This document shows, piece by piece, positions 1 through 19,840 of a DNA stretch of 64,000 nucleotides. Position 1 is the first letter of the stretch; the number at the start of each line of letters is the position of its first letter. The notes under the pieces are model-generated. The model was not told the DNA's origin and searched no databases. It worked only from the letters and a program-made list of their open reading frames with translations. Origin of the DNA: Candidatus Nomurabacteria bacterium (GTDB taxonomy: Bacteria; Patescibacteriota; Minisyncoccia; Phycocordibacterales; UBA918). Location: the NCBI GenBank assembly GCA_020632075.1, contig JACKGH010000001.1:729778-793777 (forward strand), in the 5' to 3' direction. A program made the position numbers and the translations under genes.

Positions 1-189
1 TTTTGCCATATCGCCATCTGTGGCGAGCCAGAATGTGGGGTGGAATTCCACCTGACGGCCTTTGAAGAAAGATCTGGCAAACTCAGCATACATCTGCATG
101 GTGCCAGGTATCGACTCCAGCTGTTCGCTTCCGGCGATCTTCCGCCAATGGCCCGTCGACCGCACGATCGCAACTACTGTAATGTGCAT
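1..189 (-). CDS. hypothetical protein (N-terminal fragment; gene runs off left edge)
   Basis: ATG at 189..187 with AGGAG 5-8 nt upstream. Open frame to window edge (MHITVVAIVRSTGHWRK...). Not in ORF track because it has no stop in the window. Confidence 0.35.
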   Translation of the reverse strand, partial: MHITVVAIVRSTGHWRKIAGSEQLESIPGTMQMYAEFARSFFKGRQVEFHPTFWLATDGDMAK

Positions 190-340
190 ATCTATCTCCT
201 CAATGTACCTTTGTTCGCATTAGTTTATACACCATAAATATAGTTTTGTCAATAAACTAAGTGTCTCTACGCCCGACAAGAATAGTACCTTTCGTGTGCG
301 TCTTCCATTTCTGTTACATGAAACTGGTGTACTACGAAAA

Positions 341-368
341 TGAGCCCGTTTTACCGGGCTCGTTTTTT
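341..368. terminator. intrinsic terminator hairpin (gagcccg...cgggctc + T7)
   Basis: GC stem gagcccgttttaccgggctc followed by TTTTTTT on + and preceded by AAAAT. Lies just downstream of the minus gene 408..707. Confidence 0.5.
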
Positions 369-407
369 TGATACGTATGCAAAAGTGACAACTTTAGAAC
401 TGATTGA

Positions 408-707
408 CTACTCTTCTTCAATCACCTCGTAACAGCTTTGATCAAAGCGTAAGTACTGAGGAGGCCAAGGATTTCTCCAAAAACTCGCCGCCTCGAGCTT
501 GCCGGCTTCAAGCAGAGCTTGGCATGCGTCATGCCCAGTAACTAGATGGGCTCCGTTGTGGTCTTGCGAGGTCCACTCCTCATCATCCTGATGTGCTGTC
601 GCTTCTTCATCGCTGATCGTTGGAATTTCGATGCCAACCCACTGCTCCCGTATGGATTCAGGAGCAAAACCAGGTGGAACTTTGGTGATCCGTATTTTTC
701 TAGTCAT
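408..707 (-). CDS. hypothetical protein (100 aa)
   Basis: ORF 408..749. Start trimmed to ATG at 707, which has AAGGAG 8 nt upstream. No recognisable motif. Confidence 0.5.
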   Translation of the reverse strand: MTRKIRITKVPPGFAPESIREQWVGIEIPTISDEEATAHQDDEEWTSQDHNGAHLVTGHDACQALLEAGKLEAASFWRNPWPPQYLRFDQSCYEVIEEE

Positions 708-885
708 CAAAAGAACTCCTTCGGGAACAGTCGTGTTTACACCATACACTTGGAATTTACATTTGCAAATTCTTTGTGCAAAAACCCTTCTAACACACTC
801 CCCCCACCGTACGCCAGAAAAATCAGTAGACTACATTCAAACTTTGCAGTACTTTATCTGAAACTGTTCCTGGAGGTCTGTACCG

Positions 886-1170
886 ATGACACCTGAAAAA
901 ATATTCGCTGTCGTCTCACGCTACGAAACTGAACTCTCTCAGCTGGGAGTGGTCCCGACCAGAATTGACACTAGTCGCACGTTTGGAGACTGCACACACG
1001 TGGAACTGCTCGCACACGCCGCATACCTCTGCATCGGCGCGAAGGAGTTTGCATCTAGACCAGAGAAGTTCGGTAAGGCGAACCGCCACCTGACCGCCAT
1101 TCAGATGTGCCTTAGCTTTGTCGGCATGTATACACTGGACGATCTCATGTCACACAACCGCCCGACGTAG
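886..1170 (+). CDS. hypothetical protein (94 aa)
   Basis: GGAGG 9 nt upstream of ATG 886. Followed directly by a terminator hairpin. Confidence 0.5.
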   Translation: MTPEKIFAVVSRYETELSQLGVVPTRIDTSRTFGDCTHVELLAHAAYLCIGAKEFASRPEKFGKANRHLTAIQMCLSFVGMYTLDDLMSHNRPT

Positions 1171-1186
1171 TTCGGGCTTTTTCTTT
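1159..1186. terminator. bidirectional intrinsic terminator
   Basis: cgcccgacgtagttcgggc stem overlapping the stop of 886..1170, then TTTTTCTTT. Also sits 3' of nadR on minus. Confidence 0.5.
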
Positions 1187-1201
1187 GTGAAAACCTCGAT
1201 A

Positions 1202-2170
1202 TCACACCAAAAGCATATCGATCGCTTTGGTAGCTGTCTGCATTCTTTCATCGAGCGTGCCTTGCACCAGTAAGAACGGTCGCTTGGTCTCAGTGAGTTT
1301 TTCGATGAATCGTGTATGCATACCATGACGAATATGTTCTCCGTCGCGCGTACCATCTTGTTCAAACGGGATCTCGTCACCCGTCACAATGTACAAGTCA
1401 GGCTGCGAAGTGTTCGCGACCGCTTCTACCGCCGGTGCGCTGGTACCTAGGTATCGCTCGTGCCAAACGCTGGTTGCAAAGGCATCTGTGTCCGCGATCA
1501 GTACTTTATTCGCTGTCTCAGCGAGACTATTTTCGAACTGTTGTTGTGCTTTAGCGATCGATACAAATTCTTCTGTCCGCCAACGCAGCTTGTCACCAAG
1601 CGGCAGCTTCCCTTCCGAAAAGTACCGACCGTACTCAGGCACCCAAGCAGTTTGATAATGTTCAGCCAATGCCTTTGCGAGCGTGGTGGTGCCAGTGGAC
1701 TCTGCTCCGAGTACACACACTCGTTTCACGAAGTACGCTCGCACTACCGGCTCAAGAAAATCGAGATACGATTGCGCATTACTGCGCACAAGCGTACCGC
1801 TAACCGGCACAGTCGTACGCATCCTATCAACCAACACATGCACCGAACCCATAAAGGAAGCGTACGCGTCACCATAGTCTTCTGAGGTAAAGACCGCGTC
1901 TGGTGTGTAGCCAAGAATCTCCTTAGTGAAGGCCGCCCAGCCCTTTGAATCATCATCTGACAACTTATTGTCTTCAATGAGCATCACTCGTGCTTGCGGG
2001 TGGATCTGCTGTATCCATGCAGCTCGTAGATATCCAGGAATAGATTCCGTTTGCTTGTAACAAACGATCACCGTCACCTCTTCGGAGGCCGCCTGCGCAG
2101 TATCGATAAGATACTTATGCCCGCGGTGCGGCGGATAGAACTTACCGATCACTAATCCTTTCTTGAACAT
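1202..2170 (-). CDS. nadR: bifunctional NMN adenylyltransferase / ribosylnicotinamide kinase (NadR-like, no HTH domain)
   Basis: N-terminal GKFYPPHRGH (HxGH nucleotidyltransferase motif). C-terminal P-loop GAESTGTTTLAKALA typical of the RNK domain. Operon partner pnuC immediately upstream. Confidence 0.8.
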   Translation of the reverse strand: MFKKGLVIGKFYPPHRGHKYLIDTAQAASEEVTVIVCYKQTESIPGYLRAAWIQQIHPQARVMLIEDNKLSDDDSKGWAAFTKEILGYTPDAVFTSEDYGDAYASFMGSVHVLVDRMRTTVPVSGTLVRSNAQSYLDFLEPVVRAYFVKRVCVLGAESTGTTTLAKALAEHYQTAWVPEYGRYFSEGKLPLGDKLRWRTEEFVSIAKAQQQFENSLAETANKVLIADTDAFATSVWHERYLGTSAPAVEAVANTSQPDLYIVTGDEIPFEQDGTRDGEHIRHGMHTRFIEKLTETKRPFLLVQGTLDERMQTATKAIDMLLV

Positions 2171-2897
2171 ATGCAGGAATGATTATTGCTGATTCCCCCA
2201 CTTCACCATACCAACTACGAAGCGCAAAAACAGCATGAATAAAGAATGCGACATACAGTGCCATCACTACATACGCACCAGCCGTGTAGAACAGTATGAT
2301 CGAGATAAGGTTGACCGGACCAAGCCATAACCACCAACTCTCGATCTTCTTCCGACCGAGCAAGAACTGCGCGGTCACGCTTGCCACCACCACCAACGCA
2401 TCAAGTACCGGATAGAGCGAACCTGGTGCAAAGGTATCGATCACCTGATACACCAGATATGTACCGACCACAAGAACCGCTACTACCATCACCCAGCCCC
2501 GACGAGTCAACCTGGAGACCTTGAGTTCAGAGTGATCACGACCACCAAATACCCAGTATGGCCACGCCCAAACCTGAATCACTAGGAAGTACCCCCAGTT
2601 AAGCCACTGTTGGCCAGGTAAACCGATCTCAGCGAAAAGGAACCCAAACATCACCGAACTGAGTATGCCCCACGGCCAGCAGAGTACGTTTTGGGTACGA
2701 GTGAGCCATACGCAGACGAGGCCCGCCCACGTACCAATGAATTCATAGGTACTGAAGACGAAATCAGGAATTAATTTGGCAGCGATCAGTTCATACAAAA
2801 TCGTGACGAGCGCCATGGTAACCACGACATACAAATGTTCTTTGTGTGTAGTGCGGTTACCGAGCAACCGTGTGATCCAGGTGTTGTTTGTTTCCAT
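2142..2897 (-). CDS. pnuC: nicotinamide riboside transporter PnuC
   Basis: Trp-rich polytopic membrane protein (WPWG, WAWPYW). Classic pnuC-nadR arrangement. Start moved to ATG at 2897 (METNNTW...), which removes the overlap with the operator palindrome. Confidence 0.75.
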   Translation of the reverse strand: METNNTWITRLLGNRTTHKEHLYVVVTMALVTILYELIAAKLIPDFVFSTYEFIGTWAGLVCVWLTRTQNVLCWPWGILSSVMFGFLFAEIGLPGQQWLNWGYFLVIQVWAWPYWVFGGRDHSELKVSRLTRRGWVMVVAVLVVGTYLVYQVIDTFAPGSLYPVLDALVVVASVTAQFLLGRKKIESWWLWLGPVNLISIILFYTAGAYVVMALYVAFFIHAVFALRSWYGEVGESAIIIPAYVQERISDR

Positions 2898-2925
2898 ACA
2901 GAATATACTTACGTGATAATATAGA

Positions 2926-2955
2926 TAGTGTATATTATACACTATTAAATGTCAA
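2926..2955 (-). promoter_or_regulatory. pnuC promoter with 19-bp perfect palindrome operator (TAGTGTATA-T-TATACACTA)
   Basis: Perfect 9-1-9 palindrome at 2926..2944, 29 nt upstream of the pnuC ATG. Overlaps a -10-like TACACT/TATAAT, with a perfect TTGACA -35 (minus strand) at 2955..2950. Confidence 0.45.
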
Positions 2956-3034
2956 TCTTTTGTGCTGCTGCCTATTTGCCTTCAAAAGTGAACTGCGGCA
3001 TAGTACAGAGAGAAGCACTACCCTCGGAGGAGTT

Positions 3035-3856
3035 ATGTTCAATACCAGCAAACAGTACGAACTATCGTACCGACGAGCTAGGCGCAAACCAAAACATGGA
3101 CCAGCGATCGTTTTCACCGTAGATGATCGCCACTGGTCTGAACTGCTCGATCGCCTCTCCATGCTCAGGCAACGAGATGCAAACGAGATCGATGAGTACT
3201 GCTTAGGCGAGCAGTCCCTATTCGCCCTTCCCGAACCAGATCTGTTCAAAAGCACTACGTTTGGGTACGGTAACTGCGGCACCTTCTCTTCGGCAGGACT
3301 GTACATGCATCTACACATCTGGCTCGGCAGCGGCGTTCGTTTGCATCACTGCGCCGCAACCATTCATACCCTACTCGCTGCGCTCAACGTGCCGTTTACG
3401 ACCCAACACCCAAACCAAGGCAAGCAACAAGCTGAGCTGCGTACCCGGATCGCGCACGATGCATGCGGCTACGGCCATGCGGTCAGCGGCAGTGTGCACG
3501 AAAGTGTGATCGACTGGCTACGAGACTTCGCTGCACCAACGATTCGTGAAGACGGTAGAATTCCCTACCAAAACATGCATCCAACTGTAACCGCAGCAAT
3601 GCAAGAAGCGTGGTACTGGGTGTGCGAACCGAAGCGGCGACGCTGGGCCAGTGAAGTGTACGGCAGCATCAAGAAAAATGGGCACTTTTTGCTCAACTGC
3701 TCCGGTAACGCCTGCGACCTGAGTGTCTATCCAGACACAGAGCACGACGATACGACCAAGTCGGTCGATCTCGAGTGTCACAACCTTGATCAAGCAGAGC
3801 AACAGCTGACACTACTTGCAGGGTTTGCAATGATCTGCGAACTAGCGCGGCAGTAG
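3035..3856 (+). CDS. hypothetical Cys/His-rich protein (273 aa)
   Basis: ORF 2888..3856. Start set at ATG 3035, preceded by GGAGG (ccctcGGAGGagttATG). No known motif. Confidence 0.5.
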   Translation: MFNTSKQYELSYRRARRKPKHGPAIVFTVDDRHWSELLDRLSMLRQRDANEIDEYCLGEQSLFALPEPDLFKSTTFGYGNCGTFSSAGLYMHLHIWLGSGVRLHHCAATIHTLLAALNVPFTTQHPNQGKQQAELRTRIAHDACGYGHAVSGSVHESVIDWLRDFAAPTIREDGRIPYQNMHPTVTAAMQEAWYWVCEPKRRRWASEVYGSIKKNGHFLLNCSGNACDLSVYPDTEHDDTTKSVDLECHNLDQAEQQLTLLAGFAMICELARQ

Positions 3857-3866
3857 CCCAAGTAAA

Positions 3867-3895
3867 CGGCCTTCCCTTTGGGAAGGCCGTTTTTC
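3867..3895 (+). terminator. intrinsic terminator
   Basis: aaacggccttccctttgggaaggccgttttt directly after the stop of 3035..3856. Confidence 0.6.
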
Positions 3896-3976
3896 CAAAT
3901 CGGAAATTTCTGTTATTGTGTCTTCTGTGTAAAATACGCACTTGGTACAATACCTGTACCAAGCTTGTAACACACC

Positions 3977-4048
3977 GCCCCTGTAGTTTAATGGATAAAA
4001 CTGCGGACTTCTAAGCCGTTGATCGAGGTTCGATTCCTCGCGGGGGCA
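3977..4048 (+). tRNA. tRNA-Arg (anticodon TCT)
   Basis: Manual cloverleaf: acceptor gcccctg/cgggggc, D-arm gttt-aatggata-aaac, anticodon loop cTTCTaa, T-arm cgagg-ttcgatt-cctcg. One A-G mismatch at 31-39. No encoded CCA. Confidence 0.65.
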
Positions 4049-4092
4049 CCCAATAGTGAGACTGACTCCCCACTAATCTCGGTAAGTCTAGC

Positions 4093-4132
4093 AAAACAAT
4101 AAAACCACTCAGTTGAGTGGTTTTATTGTTTT
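4093..4132. terminator. 40-nt perfect palindrome, bidirectional terminator
   Basis: AAAACAATAAAACCACTCA-gt-TGAGTGGTTTTATTGTTTT. Separates tRNA-Arg from the AT-rich islet. Confidence 0.55.
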
Positions 4133-4142
4133 CATTCAACTC

Positions 4143-4529
4143 TTAGCGAGGAATTACCTTTATTGTAAGTTTAGAAAGTAAGATAATCACAGCTCCAAAC
4201 GATACTACTTCCAATGTTATTACCATCCATTCAACTAAACTTATACTAAGCAGTGAATATAGAAAATCTGCCAAGACATATACAATGACCGTTTTTAGAA
4301 TCTGTGAGCCAAAAAACACATACCACAACTCTCTTGTTGGAAATCCTAGAACAGGGTTCTTTAGTATTTGTTGATTGTTCCAAAAATATTTACCCACATA
4401 AATCACCAAAACAGCTGGAGCTAAATATACAGAAGCTGTCAGCAACCCAACTCCAGTAGTAAAACTCAATAGAAATGATCCTAAAATTAATGCCAGTATC
4501 AGTGCTATTGTTTCTCGATTTTTTCTCAT
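4143..4529 (-). CDS. small integral membrane protein (hypothetical)
   Basis: 3-4 predicted TM helices. Start chosen at ATG 4529 (MRKNRET...) so it does not overlap fic. Alternative starts at 4601 or 4610 (GTG). AT-rich. Confidence 0.45.
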   Translation of the reverse strand: MRKNRETIALILALILGSFLLSFTTGVGLLTASVYLAPAVLVIYVGKYFWNNQQILKNPVLGFPTRELWYVFFGSQILKTVIVYVLADFLYSLLSISLVEWMVITLEVVSFGAVIILLSKLTIKVIPR

Positions 4530-4545
4530 ATTAATTAGGTTTAGT

Positions 4546-5688
4546 TTACTGATGATTAGTAAATACCTCGAAGTACTTCCTGTATGAATAGGATTTTCCA
4601 TACTTTTCACTCTCGTCTCTCGGTTCCAAAATTTCCATTTCCACCAAGCGATCTATAACATTCTGAGCACCATTACGACTAAAGCTAGTCCAGTTCATAA
4701 TGGTTGTACTAGTTACGATTGGATGACCAAATAGTTTCAGCAGGACTTTCATACTACTTTCCGACTCACGCTTACCAAGTTGTTGAATCTTTTGTGTATC
4801 TCCTATATAGAGTTCATTGATGGAACGACAAGCCACAATAGCATCTTGAGCAGTCTTAATTACACCATCTATAAAGAACTCTAGCCATACTTCTGGGTCA
4901 CCATGATGATATTCATGCAAAGCTCGATAGTACTCTTTTTGGTTTTGCTTAAAGTAAGAAGACAGGAAAAGTACTGGTTTCTCGAGCAAACCAAATCGGT
5001 ACAGTTGTAGAGTTATAAGAAGACGACCCGTCCTTCCATTACCATCTAAAAATGGATGGATGGTTTCAAACTGTGAGTGCATGTAAGCAGTATGAATCAG
5101 AGGAAGCGTTATCGTTTCATTGTGTAGGTAGTTTTCAAAGTCATTAAGCGACCTCTCCATCTCTTCAACTGGCGGTGGAACATATAAAGCATTGCTTGGT
5201 GCAGTTCCTCCAATCCAATTTTGTGAACGTCGCCATTCCCCAGGATCTGCAAAATGAGTAGCACGGGCATTAGTCATTAGCTTTGAGTGCAGCTCTTTAA
5301 TGAAGCGCTTTGACATTGGTAAATCGCACAGTCTCTCAATACCAAAGTTTAGTGCTTCTATGTAATGAAGAATGTCATCAGCATCGGTATCTTCAACACT
5401 TACAAGGCCAGCTTCCATTTCAAGGGCATCAACCATAGTTGCCTTTGTTCCCTCAATCTGAGCTGAAGCTGTTGCATCTTTAAAAATGAACATCTTCAAA
5501 AAGAAGTCTACATCTGGAAGTTGGTGTGTGGTACCATCGAGTTTGCCGACGAGATGTCCAGCTTGTGCTATTTTTTGCAAAACATCTCCTGAAATATTCA
5601 TCAGTTCTGCAGGAGGAAAATCGTCAGGCACAAAAGCTTTGAATCCTTCTTTTTGATCTACATCTTCACCGATAATATTTGTTTCCAT
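4546..5688 (-). CDS. Fic family protein (AMPylator, class II with internal inhibitory helix)
   Basis: Fic active-site motif HPFLDGNGRTGRLL. Upstream inhibitory motif SAQIEG of the (S/T)xxxE(G/N) type. AT-rich relative to neighbours. Confidence 0.85.
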   Translation of the reverse strand: METNIIGEDVDQKEGFKAFVPDDFPPAELMNISGDVLQKIAQAGHLVGKLDGTTHQLPDVDFFLKMFIFKDATASAQIEGTKATMVDALEMEAGLVSVEDTDADDILHYIEALNFGIERLCDLPMSKRFIKELHSKLMTNARATHFADPGEWRRSQNWIGGTAPSNALYVPPPVEEMERSLNDFENYLHNETITLPLIHTAYMHSQFETIHPFLDGNGRTGRLLITLQLYRFGLLEKPVLFLSSYFKQNQKEYYRALHEYHHGDPEVWLEFFIDGVIKTAQDAIVACRSINELYIGDTQKIQQLGKRESESSMKVLLKLFGHPIVTSTTIMNWTSFSRNGAQNVIDRLVEMEILEPRDESEKYGKSYSYRKYFEVFTNHQ

Positions 5689-5720
5689 AGATAGTTCGCT
5701 TTTAATTTTGAATGTGCACT

Positions 5721-5749
5721 ATTATACACTTTAGTTCGCTTTTATGCAA
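5721..5749 (-). promoter_or_regulatory. sigma70-type promoter of fic (TTGCAT-N17-TATAAT)
   Basis: On the minus strand, -35 TTGCAT (5749..5744) and -10 TATAAT (5726..5721) with a 17-nt spacer. Shares the 11-mer TATTATACACT and ATAGATAGT with the pnuC promoter. Confidence 0.45.
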
Positions 5750-5793
5750 CCAAAGTGAACTATCTTTTTGGTGTCAGATTTGTAATATTCATG

Positions 5794-5826
5794 AAAAAGA
5801 CCCCTACCGAAAGGGGTCTATTTTAT
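5794..5826. terminator. bidirectional intrinsic terminator
   Basis: aaaaagacccct-accgaa-aggggtctatttt. Confidence 0.55.
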
Positions 5827-5955
5827 TGCTATATATTCTCTAAGAAACGCTTGTGGGGCTTGGAGGGTAATTTTCCGCAACGCCAAGGGCGTACTGAAAC
5901 AAAAAAACACCCCGTGCACAATGAGAGATATTCTCTCTACCGCGCGGTGGGGGTG

Positions 5956-6543
5956 TCACTTTTCCCATTCAGGCTTTTTAGTTGGGTCAAAGTTTTTAGA
6001 GATGATAGTGTCGTATTTTTCAACAACCGCCCTTACACCTTTGCCGCCGTAGTCAACCATTCTGATTTGATTGTCTCTGTAGCTAAAGTTAGCCGGATTA
6101 GAAAAATGATGTCCGTTCGACCAAGCTGCTTGCTCTGTATAATCGAGCATCTGCGACCAAAGCGCTACCGCAGACACATCGAGTTCTTTCCCATACTTCT
6201 GAATGTTACACACCCCAAGCAGCGAAAAGAAAGTTGGTTCCAAGAACACCGAACGGGTCTTTCGCCAGAGCATAAATTCTTGCCAATTCTGGTACAGACC
6301 GTTGAGTAATGTGTACCTAATGTTTCCAATAGTGTCATGTTCTTCATCGAGCCAAAACCGTGCTTTTAGAAAGCCGAATCCTCGCCCATGAATAATGCAC
6401 CAAACATCGCTTTTAAGAACCTTCACGAACCTCCAAGGATGGATAAGCGGTAATTTAATAACCAATCCCACAGCAGGAAGACAAAACACCAGCCGGGACG
6501 AACCACTTTTGATGTACATCGACACCCCCTCAGTTTGCTTCAA
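5956..6543 (-). CDS. hypothetical protein with protein-kinase-like motif order (possible atypical kinase or pseudokinase)
   Basis: GLVIKLP (beta3 Lys), HHFSNPANF (HxDxxxxN-like catalytic loop with Ser in the Asp position), VDYGGKG (DFG-like) in kinase-consistent spacing. AT-rich. Confidence 0.45.
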   Translation of the reverse strand: MKQTEGVSMYIKSGSSRLVFCLPAVGLVIKLPLIHPWRFVKVLKSDVWCIIHGRGFGFLKARFWLDEEHDTIGNIRYTLLNGLYQNWQEFMLWRKTRSVFLEPTFFSLLGVCNIQKYGKELDVSAVALWSQMLDYTEQAAWSNGHHFSNPANFSYRDNQIRMVDYGGKGVRAVVEKYDTIISKNFDPTKKPEWEK

Positions 6544-6618
6544 ACTAATAGGAACGATAACACAAAACGAATTCGTGTCTAGAATTTAGAAAAAGACTGC
6601 CGGGCTGTGAATCCTACT

Positions 6619-7104
6619 CTACTCGACAACAACCGTTTCTGGCAGATTTCCCGACCCAGCCGCTTCTGCTTCTGTATCGGTTGCTGGAACTACTTCCTCC
6701 TCGATAGATCCTGCACCCAGTTCGGTAGGTACTTCTACCTCAGTCGTTGAAGCTGTTTCAAGGATTGGTTCAGGTTCGGGCACAAGCACCTCCTGTGCCA
6801 TTTCTGCATATAATGTATTAAAGGCCTGTTCTCGTTCAGCGAAATACTCAAGCGCTGACTGCACCATTGCCTCTCGATACACCACCACCTCATCCGCTGG
6901 ATCAATAGAGACTTGGACCGTCTTGCTCTTATGTGCCAAATACATATGTGCGCTCCAAGCTGCGGCAAGACCAAATACCACTATGGCCACCAACAGACCA
7001 ACGATCCACTCTCGCTGCGGATGGATAAGTTGTGGACTGCGTAAACCAGTACGCTTACCAAGCAACCGTTTTGCGATCTCTGTAAATTCTCGCTTACTCT
7101 TCAT
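6619..7104 (-). CDS. membrane-anchored acidic protein at the PilP position of the pilMNO operon
   Basis: Single N-terminal TM helix and acidic C-terminus. Last gene of the pilM-pilN-pilO operon. Confidence 0.5.
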   Translation of the reverse strand: MKSKREFTEIAKRLLGKRTGLRSPQLIHPQREWIVGLLVAIVVFGLAAAWSAHMYLAHKSKTVQVSIDPADEVVVYREAMVQSALEYFAEREQAFNTLYAEMAQEVLVPEPEPILETASTTEVEVPTELGAGSIEEEVVPATDTEAEAAGSGNLPETVVVE

Positions 7105-10653: not shown

Positions 10654-10713
10654 GGGCTTTAGCATAGCATGATTACCTAATACATTGACCAGCATGACCA
10701 ATGTATTAGGTAG

Positions 10714-11472
10714 TCAATCAAACCTATATCCATTTTCATGCATGATGCGCCACATGCGGTGGTACCACAACCGATACCCATCAGAGCTTGGGTGGACACC
10801 GTCAAACGCAAATAGTTGGTTAGGGTTTTTGATAAACGGATTTCGTTCATCCTCGTTAAACAACTCTATGGTCGGCACATCATAGGCCAAAGCAGTTTCT
10901 GCAATCGCCTCCTGGACTCGAATACACCGACGCTTTAAAAAACCACGCATTATGCCAGGAAAGAGAGGAGCTGAACCAATGTTGTTATAGAGCAAAAACA
11001 ACACCCTGTGTTTACATAATTCATTAAGCTGTGGCAGCACCGTTTGCAGTACTTGTTGGATCTTACGAATACTTGTCAGATGCCACACATCATTACCGCC
11101 AACACTCACAATAATCAAATCAAACTGCTGCCCAAGCATCACCTCGATCTGTTTTGGAAGATCTCGCACCAAACCACCGTTTTGAGCAACATTTATAATC
11201 TCTGCGTCCGGATAATCTGTTGCTAGTCGTCCTGCAATAGTATCCTCCGGTCGACTCGCTCCTGTACCAACTGCTGTACTATCTCCCAAAATTAACACCC
11301 GCTTCCCACCTGAACCAGCACAAGCAAACGGCTTAGTGGTAAGTCCCAAGAACTTATTGCGTGATAATTTAATGATCATTCGTAAAGCTTGCAATACCAC
11401 CATTACAATAATAGTGTCACCAACATACACAAACCAATCGAGTGAGCTGAGCGAACTAAAGAAATCAATCAT
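10714..11472 (-). CDS. SGNH/GDSL hydrolase with N-terminal membrane anchor (paralog 1)
   Basis: VLILGDSTAVG (GDS block) and DGVHPSSDGY (DxxH block). N-terminal TM helix. Confidence 0.7.
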   Translation of the reverse strand: MIDFFSSLSSLDWFVYVGDTIIVMVVLQALRMIIKLSRNKFLGLTTKPFACAGSGGKRVLILGDSTAVGTGASRPEDTIAGRLATDYPDAEIINVAQNGGLVRDLPKQIEVMLGQQFDLIIVSVGGNDVWHLTSIRKIQQVLQTVLPQLNELCKHRVLFLLYNNIGSAPLFPGIMRGFLKRRCIRVQEAIAETALAYDVPTIELFNEDERNPFIKNPNQLFAFDGVHPSSDGYRLWYHRMWRIMHENGYRFD

Positions 11473-11482
11473 GTAAACACCA

Positions 11483-12232
11483 TTAACTGTACAAAGCTTG
11501 AACGTACGGCGCAATCTGCTGCCTTACCTCTGCATACCAAATCTCATACCCTCGGTCATTAGGATGAATGCCATCAGGTGCAAAATGTACCCCGCCCTGT
11601 CGCAGCGGATCACTACTTCGCTCATGAAAGAGAGGAACATGCACAACCCCAGTGGCCGCACACACCGCACCACAAGCACGAGATACTTTACGACTATGCC
11701 ATGAATACAAATATCGCACTGGCAAACGGAAAAACTGTGCCGCACCAACATTGTTTACTGACACCAGCACTGTTACGGGTGTGTTGAACTTTTGTGCAAT
11801 ACGTCTAAGAATCTGTTCCAAGCGAGCTGCAATCGTTTGGCAACGGGTCAACTTCAAAGTATCAATTCCTCCAATCTGCACGATCACCAGATCAAATGAT
11901 TCATCTGCCATTTCATCAAGCTTAGTAATAAGCTCCTTTAGACCCATTGCGTTCTGCGCAGCGTTGATAACTGTAAACTCAGGATGATCAGCAATCAATC
12001 TACCAGCAAGTGAAAAGGCGGGCGTGGTAGCGCCAGTGCCATAAGCCGTGCTGTCACCAACAATAAGTACTTTTGCTCGTGGATTCGACTGCACCTTTTC
12101 TGCCGGCCGCGCACGCTTCCCTTCCTGCACTGCACGATATCCCCGAACGCTAATTAATGACAATTCTACAAATACGAACACAATCACCACACCTAGCAAT
12201 GCAAACCCAATACTGGCACCTAGATCATACAT
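11483..12232 (-). CDS. SGNH/GDSL hydrolase with N-terminal membrane anchor (paralog 2, tandem duplicate)
   Basis: VLIVGDSTAYG and DGIHPNDRGY. Same architecture as 10714..11472. Confidence 0.7.
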   Translation of the reverse strand: MYDLGASIGFALLGVVIVFVFVELSLISVRGYRAVQEGKRARPAEKVQSNPRAKVLIVGDSTAYGTGATTPAFSLAGRLIADHPEFTVINAAQNAMGLKELITKLDEMADESFDLVIVQIGGIDTLKLTRCQTIAARLEQILRRIAQKFNTPVTVLVSVNNVGAAQFFRLPVRYLYSWHSRKVSRACGAVCAATGVVHVPLFHERSSDPLRQGGVHFAPDGIHPNDRGYEIWYAEVRQQIAPYVQALYS

Positions 12233-12383
12233 GTTGACATTATGGCATACGGATTGACAACGACAATGTACCTTTACACGCAGGTACACTTGCAGTTTGA
12301 CATCTTTTAAAGTACGACGTCTTCATCCTATATACCTAGACCAGTTAGTAACTCACTGGCAGAATAGGGAGAACGAAAACTCC

Positions 12384-13010
12384 ATGAAAAAACTACCTCG
12401 ATTACTCCTGGCGTTTGCTATGCAACTTCCAACTGCAGTATACAGCTTCTTAGTTACAACTTTTTTAATGCGGATTTGTGTGGTACGACCCTTAAAACTA
12501 GTTGTTCCTCGAGGTTCCCTTATTATTTCAAACCATCAAAGCTGGAGCGACCCGTTCCTCATAACGTACCATCTTGGATGGCGTAATGTGTTCCGTAATC
12601 TGCCCGTACATTTTCCAGTCACCTCTCATTTTATGACCATGCCATTGATCCGCTGGTATCTATGGTCACTGCAATGCTTTAACGTTGGAGACACCAATTT
12701 AGATCGTGCACGAGCACTTATTAGAATGCGCGACTTACTACAAAGCAAGCAAACGGTTATGCTGTTCCCGGAGGGTCGATGTATCAGAGACAGCAACAAC
12801 GTGGAAGAGTTTCATCGAGGTATTGATATGCTACTCATGGAAGATATTCCGCTCGTACTCGTTCGAGTAGAAAACTTTAACAACTGGTCAATTCTACCTG
12901 GATATCCAAAGCCAACTATGACACTTACTCGCCTTCCCGATCAACAAAATCTCGAAGAGAAACGAGAAGTGATTCGCTCATTTTACAAAGACACCCAATC
13001 AAAAAGATAG
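12384..13010 (+). CDS. lysophospholipid acyltransferase family protein (PlsC/OlsA-like O-acyltransferase)
   Basis: NHQSWSDP (HX4D acyltransferase motif) and FPEGR block. Start set at ATG 12384 (MKKLPRLL). First gene of a 4-gene overlapping operon. Confidence 0.7.
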   Translation: MKKLPRLLLAFAMQLPTAVYSFLVTTFLMRICVVRPLKLVVPRGSLIISNHQSWSDPFLITYHLGWRNVFRNLPVHFPVTSHFMTMPLIRWYLWSLQCFNVGDTNLDRARALIRMRDLLQSKQTVMLFPEGRCIRDSNNVEEFHRGIDMLLMEDIPLVLVRVENFNNWSILPGYPKPTMTLTRLPDQQNLEEKREVIRSFYKDTQSKR

Positions 13011-13014
13011 GCGT

Positions 13015-13689
13015 ATGTCTTACTCTCGTCCATCTCAACTTGTTGTTCAGACTGAAGCAGATTTACCTACTGATAACAAACTCCTCTTTCTCAGAGAACG
13101 TGAACAAAAGTGCTATTTACAAAAACCCGTCACCCAACAGCTCCCATGGCTACTTGGCCGTCTCGCAGCTAAAAAAGCGATCCAGGATTTCTTTGCAACA
13201 CACAATCAGACATTACAACTGACCGATATTGAGGTATACAACACAGAAACCGGTTCTCCCTCCTACATTCTCCATGACGAAATCGTATCACGCACATCAA
13301 TACTCCTCTCGATTTCTCACACATCATCTTGTGGAGTGGCTCTCGTTACACCAGAAAATAACCATGCTGGAATCGGGATTGATATTGAACAAATTAGAGC
13401 ATTCAACACAGAAACCATCTCTCATTTTTTGACTCCTGCAGAGTACAGGTTGTATCAGGGCATTGACGTAAAGAAGCAACCTCAGATGGCAACCATCTAC
13501 TGGACTTTAAAAGAAGCATATCTAAAAGCTATAGGAACCGGACTGCGAACCCATCCTCAGCGAATTATGATCACTTTTGACAACGGAGGTTGTCCATCGG
13601 CTTACGAAAGTAACACTGGTAAGCTTATTCAGGCTTCGTTATACTATGAAGCATACGAAGGTTACATTATTTCAACAGTTGTATTATGA
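13015..13689 (+). CDS. 4'-phosphopantetheinyl transferase (Sfp type)
   Basis: GIDIE and WTLKEAYLKAIGTG motifs. Confidence 0.75.
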   Translation: MSYSRPSQLVVQTEADLPTDNKLLFLREREQKCYLQKPVTQQLPWLLGRLAAKKAIQDFFATHNQTLQLTDIEVYNTETGSPSYILHDEIVSRTSILLSISHTSSCGVALVTPENNHAGIGIDIEQIRAFNTETISHFLTPAEYRLYQGIDVKKQPQMATIYWTLKEAYLKAIGTGLRTHPQRIMITFDNGGCPSAYESNTGKLIQASLYYEAYEGYIISTVVL

Positions 13690-13943
13690 ATTCATACGAG
13701 GAGGTTGTATGCGAAGTAAAACAATTAATAGCAACTAAGCTCGGCCATACTATCGAACACATCAAACCATCAAGTCTTATAACAGACCTAACCGTTGATT
13801 CAATACAACTGTTTGAACTCCTTATTGCTTTCGAGCAACATTACCAACTTCAAACAGCGTACGAGGATATTGCTCACATCAACACTGTAGGTGATATCGC
13901 TCAGTATATTGCACATAGCAAATACCAGTTTAGCTGCGTATGA
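13686..13943 (+). CDS. acyl carrier protein (dedicated ACP)
   Basis: DLTVDSIQLFELLIAFE, a DSL-type phosphopantetheine attachment site. 4-nt overlaps with both neighbours. Confidence 0.8.
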   Translation: MNSYEEVVCEVKQLIATKLGHTIEHIKPSSLITDLTVDSIQLFELLIAFEQHYQLQTAYEDIAHINTVGDIAQYIAHSKYQFSCV

Positions 13944-14572
13944 TCACTTATCGAGTCGCTCAATCGGCGACTGACTTTAAAAATGCAGCAACCCTTGTAC
14001 ACACCGCTTACATGCAAGAGGGATACATCTCAGAGCAAAAACCATCTGGTATTAGCTCTTTCCTGAATAGACCAGGAGCAGCAACCATTGTCGCAATCGA
14101 AGATAATACTGTGCGGGGTACAATTTCAATAGTAAAAGACTCTGATAGAGGACTACCTATGGACTGCACGTACAAAGAACAAGTTGATGGGTTACGAACC
14201 GACGGCCGACACTTAGCAGAAATCTGTCAATTTGCCACCGACCAAAACCAGCAATCTGACCTTCCAGCAAGAAATACATCGCTGGTAACCCTCGGCCTAT
14301 TTGCACATATCGTGCAAATAGGCCTTGCTGACAGTACTATCTCGGATCTATGTTTTACAGTCAACAAAAAACATGAGGGATTCTACCGTGCGATTGGTTG
14401 CACAACTATCGGACCGCAGACCAACTATGCTCGAGCTAACGGGGCTGTATCACAAGGGTTTTTCTTACATCTCGCATCGCTACAGAAACAAAAAGAGACG
14501 AATCCATTTATTGGGAAAATACTGACCTATCCCGTTAACAAGGAAATAACTGACCCTACACTACTCAACTAG
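13940..14572 (+). CDS. N-acyl amino acid synthase / OlsB-FeeM-like N-acyltransferase (GNAT/autoinducer-synthase fold)
   Basis: Block-wise similarity remembered for the FeeM/OlsB family, ending in the IGPQTNY block characteristic of that family. Confidence 0.55.
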   Translation: MITYRVAQSATDFKNAATLVHTAYMQEGYISEQKPSGISSFLNRPGAATIVAIEDNTVRGTISIVKDSDRGLPMDCTYKEQVDGLRTDGRHLAEICQFATDQNQQSDLPARNTSLVTLGLFAHIVQIGLADSTISDLCFTVNKKHEGFYRAIGCTTIGPQTNYARANGAVSQGFFLHLASLQKQKETNPFIGKILTYPVNKEITDPTLLN

Positions 14573-15276
14573 AGTTGTGCAACTGAACCGTTCTGAAACG
14601 GAGCAGTTATTTTGATCACCATCCCATCCTCTAAGGTCACTACTCGATCGCAGTATTTTGTGTACTCTGCTTCATGCGTTACCATCACAATAGTCTGCCC
14701 AGCATGATGCAGCGCTCGTAACTGCTCTATCACCTGTTGCCCAGACCGACTATCGAGATTTGCCGTTGGCTCGTCTGCAAACAAAATCTTTGGATTTCCT
14801 GCAATCGCTCGCGCAATTGAAACACGCTGTTGCTCTCCTCCCGACAATTCAGCTGGACGGTTGTCTTCTTTTCCTGCTAAACCAACATGTCGCAACGCTT
14901 CACGCGCAGACTCTGCTGCCGTATCCCAATCCTGACCACGCATAAGTAGTGGTGTCAGAATATTTTCTAATGCACTAAGATCAGGGATAAGCGCATAATC
15001 TTGAAACACATATCCCATGGTTTTCAAACGAAACTCATTGAGTGCTGTCGCTGATAGAGCTTGCAAATCTTGACCATCAAGCACTACCTTACCTGCTGAT
15101 GGAGTATCGAGAGCTGACAGCTGATACAAAAGTGTTGACTTCCCTGCTCCTGAACGTCCCATTATTGCCACAAACTCACCAGGCGCCACTGATAAATCGA
15201 TACCTTTCAGTACTTCATTTTGTACTTGACCATCGTTGTACACCCTCCATAACTTTCTAGCTTCAATCATTGCCAT
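14569..15276 (-). CDS. ABC transporter ATP-binding protein (MacB/YknY/LolD type)
   Basis: Walker A GRSGAGKST, signature LSGGEQQRVSIARA, Walker B ILFADEP. Confidence 0.85.
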   Translation of the reverse strand: MAMIEARKLWRVYNDGQVQNEVLKGIDLSVAPGEFVAIMGRSGAGKSTLLYQLSALDTPSAGKVVLDGQDLQALSATALNEFRLKTMGYVFQDYALIPDLSALENILTPLLMRGQDWDTAAESAREALRHVGLAGKEDNRPAELSGGEQQRVSIARAIAGNPKILFADEPTANLDSRSGQQVIEQLRALHHAGQTIVMVTHEAEYTKYCDRVVTLEDGMVIKITAPFQNGSVAQL

Positions 15277-15277
15277 A

Positions 15278-16525
15278 CTACTTTCTACCTAAAATTGCAT
15301 TAAGTGTATTCCCTTTTGCCACAAGCCACGCCGGAACAAAACCAGCGATAACTGCTACCAGCGCAAATGTCACTGCCTGAACCAACATTCCTCCCATCGT
15401 AATACTCAACGACGCATTCGCATATGGGAAATCAAGTGGATGCTCAATGAAATATGGGATCAGTAAAAACTGCGTAACCACAATTGCAAGCGTAACACCA
15501 ACCAGCACGTACACCAATGCTTGTGTTACGTACGCAAACTCGATTGCTTGTGGAGTGATACCAATGGCTTTCAGAATACCTATTTGCCTCCTCCGAGAAA
15601 GTGCATTGATGAAAATAACAATAAAAATTGTAATTGATGCTACTGTGACACCAATACTACCAACGATAAGCGATAGCGATTGGAACGTATCACGCACGTC
15701 AACCACAAATTTTGGGATATCTTCAGTGAAGGAGTTGATCTCCCCATACTCCGCAAGCTCACTATCACGAAGTCGATCACGTATCACGCCACTTGAATAC
15801 CCCGAACTCAGCCGCACCACAATCTGATTTGCATTGTAGTCGATCCGATTAAACATTCGGCGGAAATCTCGCTCTGTAATATACGCAGCAATTGAAATAA
15901 AGTCTGACTTTGAATCTAAAATTCCTTTTACAATGAACTCACGACTTTGATCGCCAGCGGTCACCATAACCTTATCTCCTGGATACACTCCTTGCAGAGA
16001 ATCAAATACATTTCCGTATTCATCAGCATAGCGATCAACATTGTATTTCCCAAGCACAATGTACCCACTCTCTTCGGGATCTAAAAATGCCCCTTCGCCT
16101 ATCAGTTGGTCGAGGCTAGTTGTCTGCTTCTCATCGAGCGGATTAATACCTGTTACATTGAGCGCAATGATGTCAGGATCAGAATTTAAACTTCGTCGCT
16201 CTTCATAATTTGCTTCAATAGTGACAATGTCGCTATATCGAGCCGAATACGATGCTATCTCGTGATACGTATCGAGTCGTTCAAGAAAATGTTGGGTTTC
16301 ACTAATTCTCGTCTCGCCCTCAAGCGGGCTTATGTTTATATCACCAAGCACATTGACACGTACCTGTTCGGTTGCCGCGTCAACAATCCCGATAAGAATA
16401 CCACTCAGTGTAACCAGGTTTAAAAAAGTGAACATGATAATCGTCACAATTAAACCAGTAGCCCAACCATTTGCGCTTTGTATTTGCCGCAACCCTAAGA
16501 ATAAACCAACGCGCAAGTTACGCAT
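15278..16525 (-). CDS. ABC transporter permease, FtsX/MacB-type
   Basis: N-terminal TM helix, large extracytoplasmic loop and C-terminal 3-TM FtsX-like bundle. Confidence 0.8.
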   Translation of the reverse strand: MRNLRVGLFLGLRQIQSANGWATGLIVTIIMFTFLNLVTLSGILIGIVDAATEQVRVNVLGDINISPLEGETRISETQHFLERLDTYHEIASYSARYSDIVTIEANYEERRSLNSDPDIIALNVTGINPLDEKQTTSLDQLIGEGAFLDPEESGYIVLGKYNVDRYADEYGNVFDSLQGVYPGDKVMVTAGDQSREFIVKGILDSKSDFISIAAYITERDFRRMFNRIDYNANQIVVRLSSGYSSGVIRDRLRDSELAEYGEINSFTEDIPKFVVDVRDTFQSLSLIVGSIGVTVASITIFIVIFINALSRRRQIGILKAIGITPQAIEFAYVTQALVYVLVGVTLAIVVTQFLLIPYFIEHPLDFPYANASLSITMGGMLVQAVTFALVAVIAGFVPAWLVAKGNTLNAILGRK

Positions 16526-16528
16526 ATG

Positions 16529-18022
16529 CTATGGAAGTACTATACGAGCACCAACTGGCACTCCCTCAATTTCAACCAAACCATCACTTCCTTTAACACC
16601 AAGCGAGACTACTTGTTGTTGCACAGACACCCCATCATCGACCCAAACCAGGCTGGTAGTGCCTGTCTTTACAACATATCGATCTGGTAACACCAGCACA
16701 TCTTCGATACGCTCAACTTCAATGCGAACATCTGCGTTTAATCCTTCACGCAACCACACTGGTTCAGTGTCTAACATGACCGTCGTTTCGTAATACGATA
16801 CACCAGTTACATCCGTGGACACCGGGGAGACAAAAGAGACAGTTGCTAGATACTCCACTGTTGGTTCGGCGTCAAATATTACCGATGCACGATCACCGAC
16901 CATAACTTTAGTAATATCAATTTCTGGCACCTGCACCAACAACTCATACTCTCCTTCTTGCACAATTGTTACAGTTTGACCCAATCCAGCAGGCTCTCCC
17001 ACACGCATCGCAACTTCTGACACTACTCCAGCAAATGGTGCTCGGATTGTATAATCAGCTATTCGTGCTGCTTGTTGTGCTAACGATGACTCAGCTTCAG
17101 CAACCCAAGCAGTTGCTTGCGCCAACACTTCAGTTACCGGTCCAGCATTGACCAGTCGTTCATTCTCTTCTGCTAACGCGAGTTCTTCTTGAGCCGACTG
17201 TAGTGCAGCATCCCGCTGTGCCACAAGCAAATCATACGCGCTTTGTAACATGACATACGACGGACTACGCTTATTTGGAACAGGAACTTGCCAATCAGTG
17301 CTTCTATACGCCTCGGCAGCATCAAACTGAATATATAGACCACAATCTCCCAGTGGTTCAGGCGTTGTTTTGTTACCAGGGTACTTACCCGAACCCAACC
17401 CAGAGAGCACATACGACACGTTCGCATCTGCTCGGGAGCCAAACAACGACAGTAAGTACAATCCTTCTTCCTCACACAAGTAGCTACCACTAATCGAAGG
17501 TGGAGTATCGTCATTGGTCACATCCACCGGATACGCTCGCAAATCATTTGAAAGAAGTTGCTGTCGTGCATTGCGAATTGCTTGCTCATACTCAAGCGAA
17601 ATACTTGCTAATGCCGCTACAGCAACTTCAGTACTCTTCTCAGCTACCGCCCGCTCCTCCATGGGAGCTCCACGCAGCAATTCCGCACGCTGTTCTTTAG
17701 CTGCTCGCACTCGTTCTAGCACTGCATCGTACTCAGCAACCAGCGCGTCGCTAGTCAGTGATGCAATTACATCACCCGCGGCCACCTGATCTCCAACAGA
17801 AAAATATACCTGTTGAATTGTGCCTGGCACCGCAAAACCTAGACGAGTAAGTTGATCAACATCAATCTTACCTGACGCAATAACCGTCTGAACTATCGTA
17901 CCGAGAGAGACTGTCGTACTCTCTACAACCCTATCTGAAGGCAGCATATGTTGCATGTATCCCAGCCCCGCACCAGCAAGAATTATACTGAGCGCAAACA
18001 CAAACAACCAGAATTTTTTCAT
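16529..18022 (-). CDS. periplasmic adaptor (HlyD/MacA/YknX-like membrane fusion protein)
   Basis: N-terminal TM helix, coiled-coil hairpin and lipoyl/beta-barrel regions. Start at 18037 or 18022 (GGTGG 6 nt upstream). Confidence 0.7.
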   Translation of the reverse strand: MKKFWLFVFALSIILAGAGLGYMQHMLPSDRVVESTTVSLGTIVQTVIASGKIDVDQLTRLGFAVPGTIQQVYFSVGDQVAAGDVIASLTSDALVAEYDAVLERVRAAKEQRAELLRGAPMEERAVAEKSTEVAVAALASISLEYEQAIRNARQQLLSNDLRAYPVDVTNDDTPPSISGSYLCEEEGLYLLSLFGSRADANVSYVLSGLGSGKYPGNKTTPEPLGDCGLYIQFDAAEAYRSTDWQVPVPNKRSPSYVMLQSAYDLLVAQRDAALQSAQEELALAEENERLVNAGPVTEVLAQATAWVAEAESSLAQQAARIADYTIRAPFAGVVSEVAMRVGEPAGLGQTVTIVQEGEYELLVQVPEIDITKVMVGDRASVIFDAEPTVEYLATVSFVSPVSTDVTGVSYYETTVMLDTEPVWLREGLNADVRIEVERIEDVLVLPDRYVVKTGTTSLVWVDDGVSVQQQVVSLGVKGSDGLVEIEGVPVGARIVLP

Positions 18023-19132: not shown

Positions 19133-19138
19133 ACTTGT

Positions 19139-19836: not shown

Positions 19837-19840
19837 TAGT

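Follow-up and report, generated by a model that had tools for sequence, protein, structure and literature searches.

A 64-kb stretch of a Candidatus Nomurabacteria genome, hereafter the window, carries between its tRNA-Arg(TCT) gene and the last gene of a pilM-N-O operon a discrete, integrase-less cassette of 1.84 kb (positions 4051-5886). This cassette holds two genes and its own promoter, and encodes a class II Fic AMP-transferase of the SoFic type together with a small membrane protein. It probably entered by site-specific insertion at the 3' end of the tRNA gene, at a place where an older gene, for a protein with a predicted kinase fold, was already resident.

The host belongs to the Patescibacteria and is of the Paceibacteria type: the PilM protein of the window retrieves 53 relatives at 55-77% identity, in metagenome-assembled genomes labelled Kaiserbacteria, Nomurabacteria, Paceibacteria or Saccharibacteria. 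Synteny across these 53 loci was read by tblastn. Comparison loci and contigs are designated by L-numbers (L005-L119).

Transfer of the cassette

The cassette recurs at low divergence in other genomic contexts. Two further copies were found through homologues of the membrane protein. L067, the only other host with comparable core genes, matches window positions 5886-4068 at 93.9% DNA identity. In L068, the match spans 5905-4006, at 90.9%, and extends into the tRNA; the Fic protein is 97% identical in both. The left flanks differ in each case, being the kinase-like 187-aa gene in the window, znuABC and fur in L067, downstream of a pil operon whose PilM is 68% identical to that of the window, and a region with a resistance-nodulation-division (RND) pump and spermine synthase in L068. 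In guanine-plus-cytosine (GC) content, the cassette is at 37.5-38.2%, whereas its hosts are at 42-48%. For fic, synonymous divergence (dS) amounts to 0.16 in L067 and 0.28 in L068; the membrane gene has matching values (0.19 and 0.34). The low dS and the constant low GC across unlike hosts fit a recent transfer. All three genes between the tRNA and the pil operon are under purifying selection, the ratio of nonsynonymous to synonymous divergence (dN/dS) being 0.04-0.10 for fic, 0.22-0.32 for the membrane gene and 0.06 for the kinase-like gene.

In L062/L063, the gene right behind a pilP homologue encodes a Fic of 87% identity, and L067, L068, L062 and L058 all carry fic without the kinase-like gene. 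Horizontal acquisition at a tRNA 3' end, which the initial annotation had suggested for an islet of three genes, is thus strongly supported for fic and the membrane gene, on 91-94% DNA identity within differing flanks, but not supported for the kinase-like gene. The features of the locus are as follows.

3977-4050, + strand: tRNA-Arg(TCT), called by ARAGORN and matched by the Rfam tRNA model at 64.6 bits; its 3' end is one cassette boundary
4051-4092, no strand: truncated boundary hairpin (RE), recognised from intact copies in relatives
4093-4132, no strand: perfect 19-bp AT-rich inverted repeat AAAACAATAAAACCACTCA/TGAGTGGTTTTATTGTTTT, from the repeat search
4143-4529, - strand: 128-aa protein with four hydrophobic stretches, predicted as four transmembrane segments, from homologues and hydropathy
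4546-5688, - strand: fic, a SoFic-type class II Fic AMP-transferase of 380 aa, from Pfam, PADLOC and PDB alignments
5689-5765, - strand: fic promoter and leader, with TATAAT at 5726-5721, TTGCAT at 5749-5744 and a 17-nt spacer
5770-5886, no strand: left-end segment (LE), set by the limits of homology with L067 and L068
5887-5895, no strand: degenerate far-end repeat, reverse complement AGTACGCCC, compared with the last 9 nt of tRNA-Arg, GGTGCCCCC
5897-5955, - strand: intrinsic terminator of the kinase-like gene, an ACACCCC...GGGGTGT stem and a T-run, read from the sequence
5956-6519, - strand: 187-aa protein with a predicted minimal kinase fold, phrog_4301 family, from homologues, an AlphaFold model and fold matches
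6619-7104, - strand: last gene of the pilM-N-O operon (PilP-position protein), from tblastn synteny over the 53 loci
2887-2994, - strand: pnuC start and upstream region, with four collinear blocks in common with the fic upstream region

Everything to the right of tRNA-Arg lies on the - strand: the membrane open reading frame (ORF), ending at 4143, then fic, the 195- or 187-aa ORF and four genes, among which PilM and PilN have Pfam support.

Ends of the cassette

At the tRNA side, where the gene ends in GGGGGCACC, the cassette begins with the RE hairpin. Its intact form reads GACTTACYGAGA..GGGG-TATTAA-CCCC-TCTCRGTAGGTC-TCACTA, is dyad-symmetric, has its arm end 2-4 nt from the tRNA, and adjoins a tRNA or a tRNA remnant in L067, L068, L058, L033, L008 and some 30 metagenome loci; in the window, about 14 nt are missing from its apex and 3' arm. 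Copies of the hairpin arm were collected by an exact-pattern scan of metagenomes, which returned 49 loci with about 30 true copies. In the proposed structure, 87.5% of the cells are paired, against at most 55% in slid controls, and covariation is weak. RNAalifold, applied to the mixed hairpin copies, did not recover the RE hairpin, and an Rfam search with permissive E-values matched only the tRNA within 3800-6700 and nothing on six intact RE copies. The AT-rich inverted repeat beside RE is likely a bidirectional terminator that closes the transcript of fic and the membrane gene. In L005, L008, L033, L035 and L037, its outer arms are kept and its inner stem is variable.

At the other side, homology starts at window position 5886 for L067 and at 5905 for L068. 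LE contains a GC hairpin (5798-5819) resembling a bidirectional terminator, and parts of LE recur in L033, L010, L034, L042, L052 and L077. The adjoining nine nucleotides (5887-5895) may be read as the decayed core of an attachment site at the far end of the cassette. At the homologous position, L068 and L062 have TGGTGCCCCC and L067 has GGTGCCC, corresponding to the last 9-10 nt of the tRNA. In L077, the RE hairpin, GGTGCCCCC and LE follow in direct succession, and more partial tRNA 3' ends occur in L033, L065 and L068. Site-specific integration and tandem accretion commonly leave such RE-core-LE junctions and partial tRNA ends behind.

In exact and short-BLAST searches, no stretch of 10 nt or more repeating the 3' end of tRNA-Arg turned up within the islet or the window. 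The earlier statement that no direct repeat exists therefore stands for the window, whose copy is degenerate, but not for the relatives, which have GGTGCCCCC at the homologous boundary. Neither the ORF list nor a Pfam scan contained a recombinase ORF in 4051-6620, in agreement with the absence of an integrase noted before.

Composition and the empty site

The interval 4051-6620 has 39.9% GC, against a window mean of 47.6% (standard deviation 3.4 in 1-kb windows), and 4051-5950, at 38.5%, is the lowest 1.9-kb stretch of the 64 kb. Windowed recalculation thus bore out the sharp drop in GC that had drawn attention to the locus, but values in the mid-30s, given for the entire islet, apply to 4.0-4.8 kb only; the 400-nt minimum is 33.3%, at 4201-4600. 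The composition is uneven by gene, with 33% in the membrane gene, 40% in fic and 44.4%, close to native, in the 187-aa gene.

In most relatives, the native neighbour of tRNA-Arg is the PilP-position gene. Only the first ~100 residues of this protein (6619-7104; pilP matches in L005-L057) are conserved, the C-terminal half being a fast-evolving acidic low-complexity tail, and tblastn matches therefore usually end about 190 nt short of the true stop codon. Thirty-four relatives have both the pil operon and a downstream, convergent tRNA-Arg(TCT); in 26 of them, at most 1 kb separates this tRNA from the end of the pilP match, and in the other eight 1.2-7 kb. Several relatives have the pilP stop codon within a few nucleotides of the tRNA, or a simple terminator directly abutting it, and the boundary hairpin is absent from these empty sites. 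The comparison with related genomes that had been proposed as a check thus supports acquisition: the pilP/tRNA-Arg interval is ancestrally empty, a tight junction. Other filled sites hold a metallo-beta-lactamase-like protein and a distant Fic (L008), a STAND-like ATPase (L033), or the 187-aa gene alone (L019).

The Fic protein

The core motif HPFLDGNGRTGR at residues 211-222 fits HxFx(D/E)GNGRxxR, and SAQIEG at residues 75-80 fits the inhibitory motif (S/T)xxxE(G/N), so that both motifs reported earlier are present. Pfam recognises Fic_N (residues 38-118, including SAQIEG) and Fic (67.8 bits against a cut-off of 24). The class II assignment made before was right and can be sharpened to the SoFic type, since the PADLOC SoFic profile PDLC03963 matches essentially at full length (E=7.1e-105, residues 15-377 on profile positions 5-359 of 361). 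Alignments to the SoFic-type PDB chains 7cb8, 3eqx/3zcn and 9tc4 cover residues 30-358, the C-terminal domain included. The architecture comprises an N-terminal dimerisation helix, the inhibitory motif, the Fic core and a C-terminal winged-helix domain, as in the SoFic proteins of Shewanella oneidensis (MloA) and E. coli H397 (EcSofic). SAQIEG corresponds in position to SSEIEN, the inhibitory motif of SoFic (bioRxiv 10.64898/2026.07.09.737422).

More than 7900 Fic homologues were found at E<=1e-40. Among the matches listed, identity beyond the three closest relatives forms a plateau at ~58-64%, and the matches named by source span several phyla. Distant homologues annotated as MloA sit near the ends of Streptococcus prophage records.

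Sofic has been described as a class II Fic and a single-gene anti-phage system that is toxic when active; in E. coli H397, the 47-aa product of a downstream gene neutralises this toxicity (PMC12249575). SoFic AMPylates EF-Tu, from which it also removes AMP efficiently, and binds the promoter of its own gene within 100 bp of the start codon; what it does physiologically in Shewanella is not settled (bioRxiv 10.64898/2026.07.09.737422). The present locus resembles these systems in having a small gene immediately downstream and operator-like repeats less than 100 bp from the start codon. Unlike the characterised SoFic proteins, the present one comes from a patescibacterial host and is distant in sequence (145 bits against the NCBIfam equivalog cut-off of 550). 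The downstream product, described as a 128-aa protein with four predicted transmembrane segments, also differs from the 47-aa Sofic-AS1 of E. coli.

The fic promoter

The previously proposed promoter, TTGCAT-N17-TATAAT, is present at 5749-5721. A consensus scan did not list it because the -35 hexamer fits the consensus at three of six positions. The repeat search found three copies of an operator-like motif of ~14 nt (AAAGCGAACTATCT), at 5689-5702, at 5732-5744 and, inverted, at 5752-5765. Their core, AAAGCGAACTA(TCT), therefore occurs three times within 80 bp of the fic start codon: upstream of the -35 element (inverted), in the spacer and at the start codon. In all, the pattern has seven matches against 2.25 expected, and three of the seven are at the fic promoter. 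The motifs are retained in the 77%-identical copy of L062; this is not independent proof, since the whole promoter is conserved to a similar level. CccR of Yersinia pseudotuberculosis binds its own promoter as a dimer (cited in bioRxiv 10.64898/2026.07.09.737422). By description, CccR is a transcriptional autoregulator with Fic and winged helix-turn-helix domains, and thus shares the architecture of the present protein, in which DNA binding is suggested by the pattern of repeats flanking the -35 and -10 elements.

The fic upstream region also has four blocks in common, in the same order, with that of pnuC: AAAGTGAACT, TATTATACACT, ATAGATAGT and TTTGTTTCCATA. In the 64 kb, ATAGATAGT and TATTATACACT have two copies each and no more, one before pnuC and one before fic; AAAGTGAACT likewise has two copies only. 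Both proteins start with Met-Glu-Thr-Asn. In a ranking of 3321 pairs of upstream regions of the window by shared words of at least 9 nt, the pnuC/fic pair came first. The similarity between the two promoters, initially described for two motifs, is thus confirmed and extended by two blocks.

The membrane protein

We take the membrane gene to start at the ATG at 4529, 16 nt past the fic stop codon, because all eight homologues are 128 aa long (77-91% identical). The alternative reading, a 155-aa protein overlapping fic, is ruled out by the same eight homologues. Of the two arrangements first considered, the gene therefore abuts fic and does not overlap it. Its dS, matching that of fic, and its dN/dS indicate a real, co-inherited coding gene, which is probably co-transcribed with fic. 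The membrane gene accompanies fic in L067 and L068 and stands alone beside tRNA-Arg(CCT) in L065/L066.

A different arrangement is seen in L060 (2564-2761) and L061 (607-804), where a 65-aa ORF overlaps the start codon of a 72%-identical Fic homologue. No membrane gene lies downstream there, and the upstream region is different, AT-rich and palindromic, with AGTATAC repeated. Partner genes thus vary within this Fic clade.

The protein with a predicted kinase fold

The kinase-like ORF spans 5956-6543 (195 aa), and its start was placed at ATG 6519 because the full-length homologues are all ~187 aa. The protein has 19 close relatives, and a profile search extends the family to 874 cluster representatives of ~170-200 aa; phrog_4301 is matched by 45 of 66 family members. 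Searches against Pfam, NCBIfam, PADLOC and PDB sequences, profiles included, gave noise and no match to a kinase family. A tblastn search of 50,697 phage records gave no match to the protein, although its family matches phrog_4301.

The sequence contains, in the kinase-like order already pointed out, VIKLP (residues 20-24), HHFSNPANF (137-145) and DYG (156-158). However, the serine thought to occupy the position of the catalytic Asp does not do so: the D-x4-N spacing places Phe139 there, and Ser140 as a substitute for this Asp is ruled out by that spacing and by conservation. When residues were counted over 167 diverse family members, the position five before Asn144 was Phe in 92%, otherwise Leu or Trp, and never Asp. 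Since Phe is found family-wide, the absence of the catalytic Asp is not a local loss. In the same members, Lys22, Glu81, Asn144 and Asp156, which correspond to the set of β3 Lys, αC Glu, catalytic-loop Asn and DFG Asp, are 98-100% conserved; Arg9, Asn78, Thr96, Ser99, Asn105, Gln107 and His137 are also essentially invariant.

The AlphaFold (AF2) model has a predicted local distance difference test (pLDDT) score of 90. The Foldseek matches listed from the PDB are weak, with E at least 0.012 and template-modelling (TM) scores of ~0.4, and almost all have a kinase fold (RIO1/2, Bud32/PRPK, NleH and Ark1). Matches in BFVD, with E down to 5e-6, comprise uncharacterised phage proteins of small size as well as Ser/Thr kinases of giant viruses. 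The kinase-fold reading thus survives structure prediction. With RIO1/RIO2, Bud32/PRPK, Ark1 and NleH, the protein shares the predicted N-lobe sheet, the β3 Lys, the αC Glu, the loop Asn, the Asp of DxG and a size in the range of 170-200 aa. It differs from these minimal kinases by the conserved Phe in place of the catalytic Asp and by the lack of sequence-profile similarity. On the predicted model and conservation, it may be a selected nucleotide-binding protein with a minimal kinase fold, whose role is non-catalytic or involves a non-canonical transfer chemistry.

That the protein is instead an active kinase of small molecules or RNA, and neither a pseudokinase nor purely ATP-binding, is conceivable, although we lean against it. 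The invariance of the ATP/Mg-binding set and of further polar residues, the low dN/dS and the presence among the nearest folds of the minimal kinases RIO and Bud32 and of the archaeal RNA kinase Ark1 would all suit an active enzyme. Against this stand a catalytic-base position that never holds Asp, the missing profile link to any kinase family, the weakness of the PDB fold matches and the lack of a conserved gene neighbour that would hint at a substrate.

The gene appears to be an older accessory resident of the same hot spot, separate from the Fic cassette. In L019, it stands alone at the same site, with a saturated dS (2.96) comparable to the divergence of core genes. Elsewhere, homologues lie in unrelated contexts, with no conserved gene neighbour. 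It also has its own terminator (5897-5955); the terminator scan gave terminator-like matches on the + strand only, at 5934-5969. With its near-native GC, this terminator and its solitary occurrence in L019, the gene is outside the transferred unit, contrary to the initial grouping of all three genes in one islet. A GC-rich hairpin at 5934-5955 was considered as a remnant of a tRNA end and ruled out, as it is the stem of this terminator. One homologue, L119 3464-4033 (GCA_043716735.1), lies between dnaG and rpoD, which are neighbours in a conserved operon; its position there points to the insertion of a stand-alone gene.

Discussion

The comparisons make it probable that the cassette, together with the core repeat at 5887-5895, was inserted by site-specific recombination into a pilP/tRNA-Arg junction that already held the older gene for the 187-aa kinase-fold protein. 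Since the cassette has no recombinase, it was probably mobilised in trans, and the large serine recombinases of sister elements would be candidate enzymes. Both ends are decayed, the hairpin being truncated and the core degenerate, so that this copy is probably immobile now. By analogy with SoFic, the Fic protein would be a dimeric AMP-transferase restrained by its own inhibitory helix (Glu79 in SAQIEG), and its C-terminal winged-helix domain would probably act on the three repeats at 5689-5765 to repress the fic promoter. Once unleashed, for example during phage infection, it may AMPylate a core target such as EF-Tu and halt translation, resulting in a defence of the abortive-infection type. 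The membrane protein would most likely modulate or complement Fic, as an antitoxin-like or effector-like partner, and can travel alone.

Several observations weigh against this reading. At the far end, the repeat of the window agrees with GGTGCCCCC at six of ten aligned positions, which alone is not significant. A recombinase is missing both from the cassette and from its vicinity, and neither a circular form nor a product of excision was seen. The invariance of the 3' arm of RE is partly an artefact of the exact-pattern search, and L108 has the RE hairpin without cargo, so that RE could be a lineage-specific tRNA trailer and not the end of an element. Furthermore, L058/L059 have a 95%-identical Fic without the membrane gene, with a clean 407-bp difference from the fic stop codon to the terminator hairpin; together with the solitary membrane gene in L065/L066, this indicates that the two genes need not be coupled. 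The comparison contigs all come from metagenome assemblies, where chimeras can arise from repeats. With regard to the protein, the level of the NCBIfam SoFic equivalog NF046030 is not reached (145.1 bits against a cut-off of 550), identity to characterised SoFic proteins is ~25-30%, and both target and defence role would be extrapolations from homologues.

An alternative view of the function is that Fic is mainly a housekeeping or stress regulator, a CccR-like transcription factor and reversible modifier of EF-Tu and not an anti-phage protein, with the cassette acting as an addiction module of the toxin-antitoxin kind. The binding of SoFic to its own promoter and its removal of AMP from EF-Tu (bioRxiv 10.64898/2026.07.09.737422) would accord with a regulator, as would the three operator-like repeats at the fic promoter, one half-site of which recurs with other blocks at the pnuC promoter. 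The neutralisation of E. coli Sofic toxicity by a downstream small gene (PMC12249575) would accord with an addiction module. We nevertheless consider this unlikely in view of the full-length PADLOC SoFic match, the mostly defence-type cargo of sister cassettes and the homologues near the ends of prophage records. High mobility combined with strong purifying selection fits genes of conflict as well, although a regulatory role would still be compatible with all of these points.

As to the mode of insertion, the pilP/tRNA-Arg junction might simply be a hot spot for illegitimate or homologous recombination, at which the hairpins are ordinary trailers or terminators that supply homology and no dedicated machinery is involved. 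Such a hot spot would explain a window without an integrase and a hairpin without cargo in L108; the AT-rich hairpin does resemble a plain bidirectional terminator, the covariation of the RE hairpin is weak, and the clean 407-bp indel containing the membrane gene suggests modular shuffling at shared hairpins. However, the hairpin is absent from the empty sites of relatives, and one and the same hairpin abuts four tRNA species as well as truncated tRNA 3' ends. The RE-core-LE junctions and the repeated partial tRNA ends are classic scars of attachment sites, and sister elements contain large serine recombinases. We therefore regard an origin without dedicated machinery as quite improbable. That all of 4051-6620, kinase-like gene included, is one acquired island is highly improbable and already largely refuted: the three genes lie on one strand between pilP and the tRNA, in an interval that is empty in most relatives, and the kinase-like gene, with homologues in unrelated contexts, is an accessory gene too, but homology to the other copies ends at 5886-5905, just past the terminator of that gene, its GC is 44.4% against 38% for the cassette, L019 has it alone at the site with a dS of 2.96, and L067, L068, L062 and L058 have fic without it.

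In the ~30 metagenome loci, the hairpin arm lies 2-4 nt from tRNA-Arg(TCT), tRNA-Arg(GCG), tRNA-Arg(CCT), tRNA-Lys(TTT) or truncated tRNA ends. The adjacent ORFs that were scanned include Shedu (SduA_C), Schlafen/AlbA_2, an APH-type phosphotransferase, a specificity subunit of a type I restriction-modification system, a reverse transcriptase, an SMC-like ATPase, a STAND NTPase and large serine recombinases (Resolvase, Recombinase and Zn_ribbon domains). These recombinases, of ~440 aa (L072 8998-10320, L079 751-2082, L089 8436-9617), are separated from the hairpin by 2-3.5 kb and accompanied by Shedu, Schlafen or APH genes; the loci adjoin tRNA-Lys or tRNA-Arg. Neither long flanking direct repeats nor a second type of left end was found around these three loci, so that an autonomous parent element was not delimited. 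The hairpin arm had no match in IMG/VR viral contigs.

In its kind, the element appears to be familiar, a SoFic-type defence gene on a tRNA-anchored mobile cassette, placed in a new setting. It resembles tRNA-targeted islands, integrase-less cis-mobilizable elements (CIMEs) and hot-spot defence islands in its site at a tRNA 3' end, its foreign composition, its variable presence, the tRNA-end repeat at the far boundary of the sister copies, the mostly defence cargo of the family and the scars of tandem accretion. Unlike these, it is very small (1.84 kb, two genes), has no recombinase aboard and has a dyad hairpin abutting the tRNA end, and its candidate mobilisers are large serine recombinases, not tyrosine integrases. 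No description of such an element for Patescibacteria was found in the literature searched. With integron cassettes, it has in common the one- or two-gene unit of promoter and cargo, a structured imperfect palindrome, tandem stacking at one site and the exchange of cargo between hosts. This likeness is organisational only, as IntI and an attI or attC consensus are absent, insertion is at a tRNA 3' end and the cassette brings its own promoter.

We put forward, as a tentative and still doubtful generalisation, that the hairpin, the tRNA-end core and LE define an undescribed family in Patescibacteria of miniature, mostly integrase-less cassettes of one or two genes, mostly for defence, which are stacked at the 3' ends of several tRNA genes, exchanged between distant hosts and mobilised in trans by large serine recombinases; and, separately, that the 187-aa protein represents a widespread family of Asp-less minimal kinase folds common to Patescibacteria and phages. 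If so, the former would be an integron-like system of defence cassettes anchored on tRNA genes.

The genomes of Patescibacteria are tiny, and the literature searched says little about how these bacteria gain anti-phage genes and exchange them. The present locus would offer a clean, bounded example, a two-gene cassette of the SoFic type in three genomic contexts at low divergence. Its end structures point to further defence-type genes next to tRNA genes in metagenomes. If these structures are genuine recombination sites, uncultured lineages might be mined for defence cargo with them as a practical marker, and they would be a candidate small landing-pad system for serine recombinases. A SoFic-type enzyme with a conserved membrane partner may also be relevant to the still unsettled control of SoFic toxicity, and the kinase-like gene brings to attention what appears to be a large uncharacterised family of minimal kinase folds without the catalytic Asp, common with phages. 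These implications are drawn from sequence comparison.

Variation around the neighbouring tRNA genes

In relatives (L006, L011, L013, L015, L018, L021 and others), tRNA-Val(TAC) follows tRNA-Arg(TCT) within 0.2-4 kb. It is absent anywhere in the window, where positions 1-3976 instead hold an ORF at 2888/3035-3856, with 53-55% GC and no family match, and the pnuC-nadR pair, carried by none of the 53 related loci. The absence of tRNA-Val and these different neighbours indicate that tRNA-Arg is a synteny breakpoint on its 5' side as well.

Other tRNA genes of the window adjoin what look like further variable regions. From ruvX to tRNA-Arg(GCG), the distance is 30-3600 bp in relatives against ~9 kb in the window (10701-19841), with below-average GC (41-46%), and another low-GC kilobase (21001-22000, 38.9%) lies past tRNA-Ser. 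No copy of the boundary hairpin was found in these two regions.

Many relatives have a second conserved element of ~110-190 nt before tRNA-Arg, consisting of CACGAGTYACTAAGTATATTT...CTCGACCCCGGCTCRAC, a GTTTTCTTCTCT/AGAGAAGAAAAC hairpin and ATGTCTCCGCCCGGCACA. It was seen at L035 13003-13188, L008 7255-7480, L038, L016, L013, L027, L048, L030 and L041, and is absent from the window. L028 and L032 (~60-110 nt before the tRNA) and L006 contain inverted partial copies of the tRNA-Arg 3' end, GGTTCGATTCCT...TCGCGGGGGCAC, which a short hairpin splits and which point towards the genuine tRNA; either earlier integration or a pseudo-tRNA may account for them.

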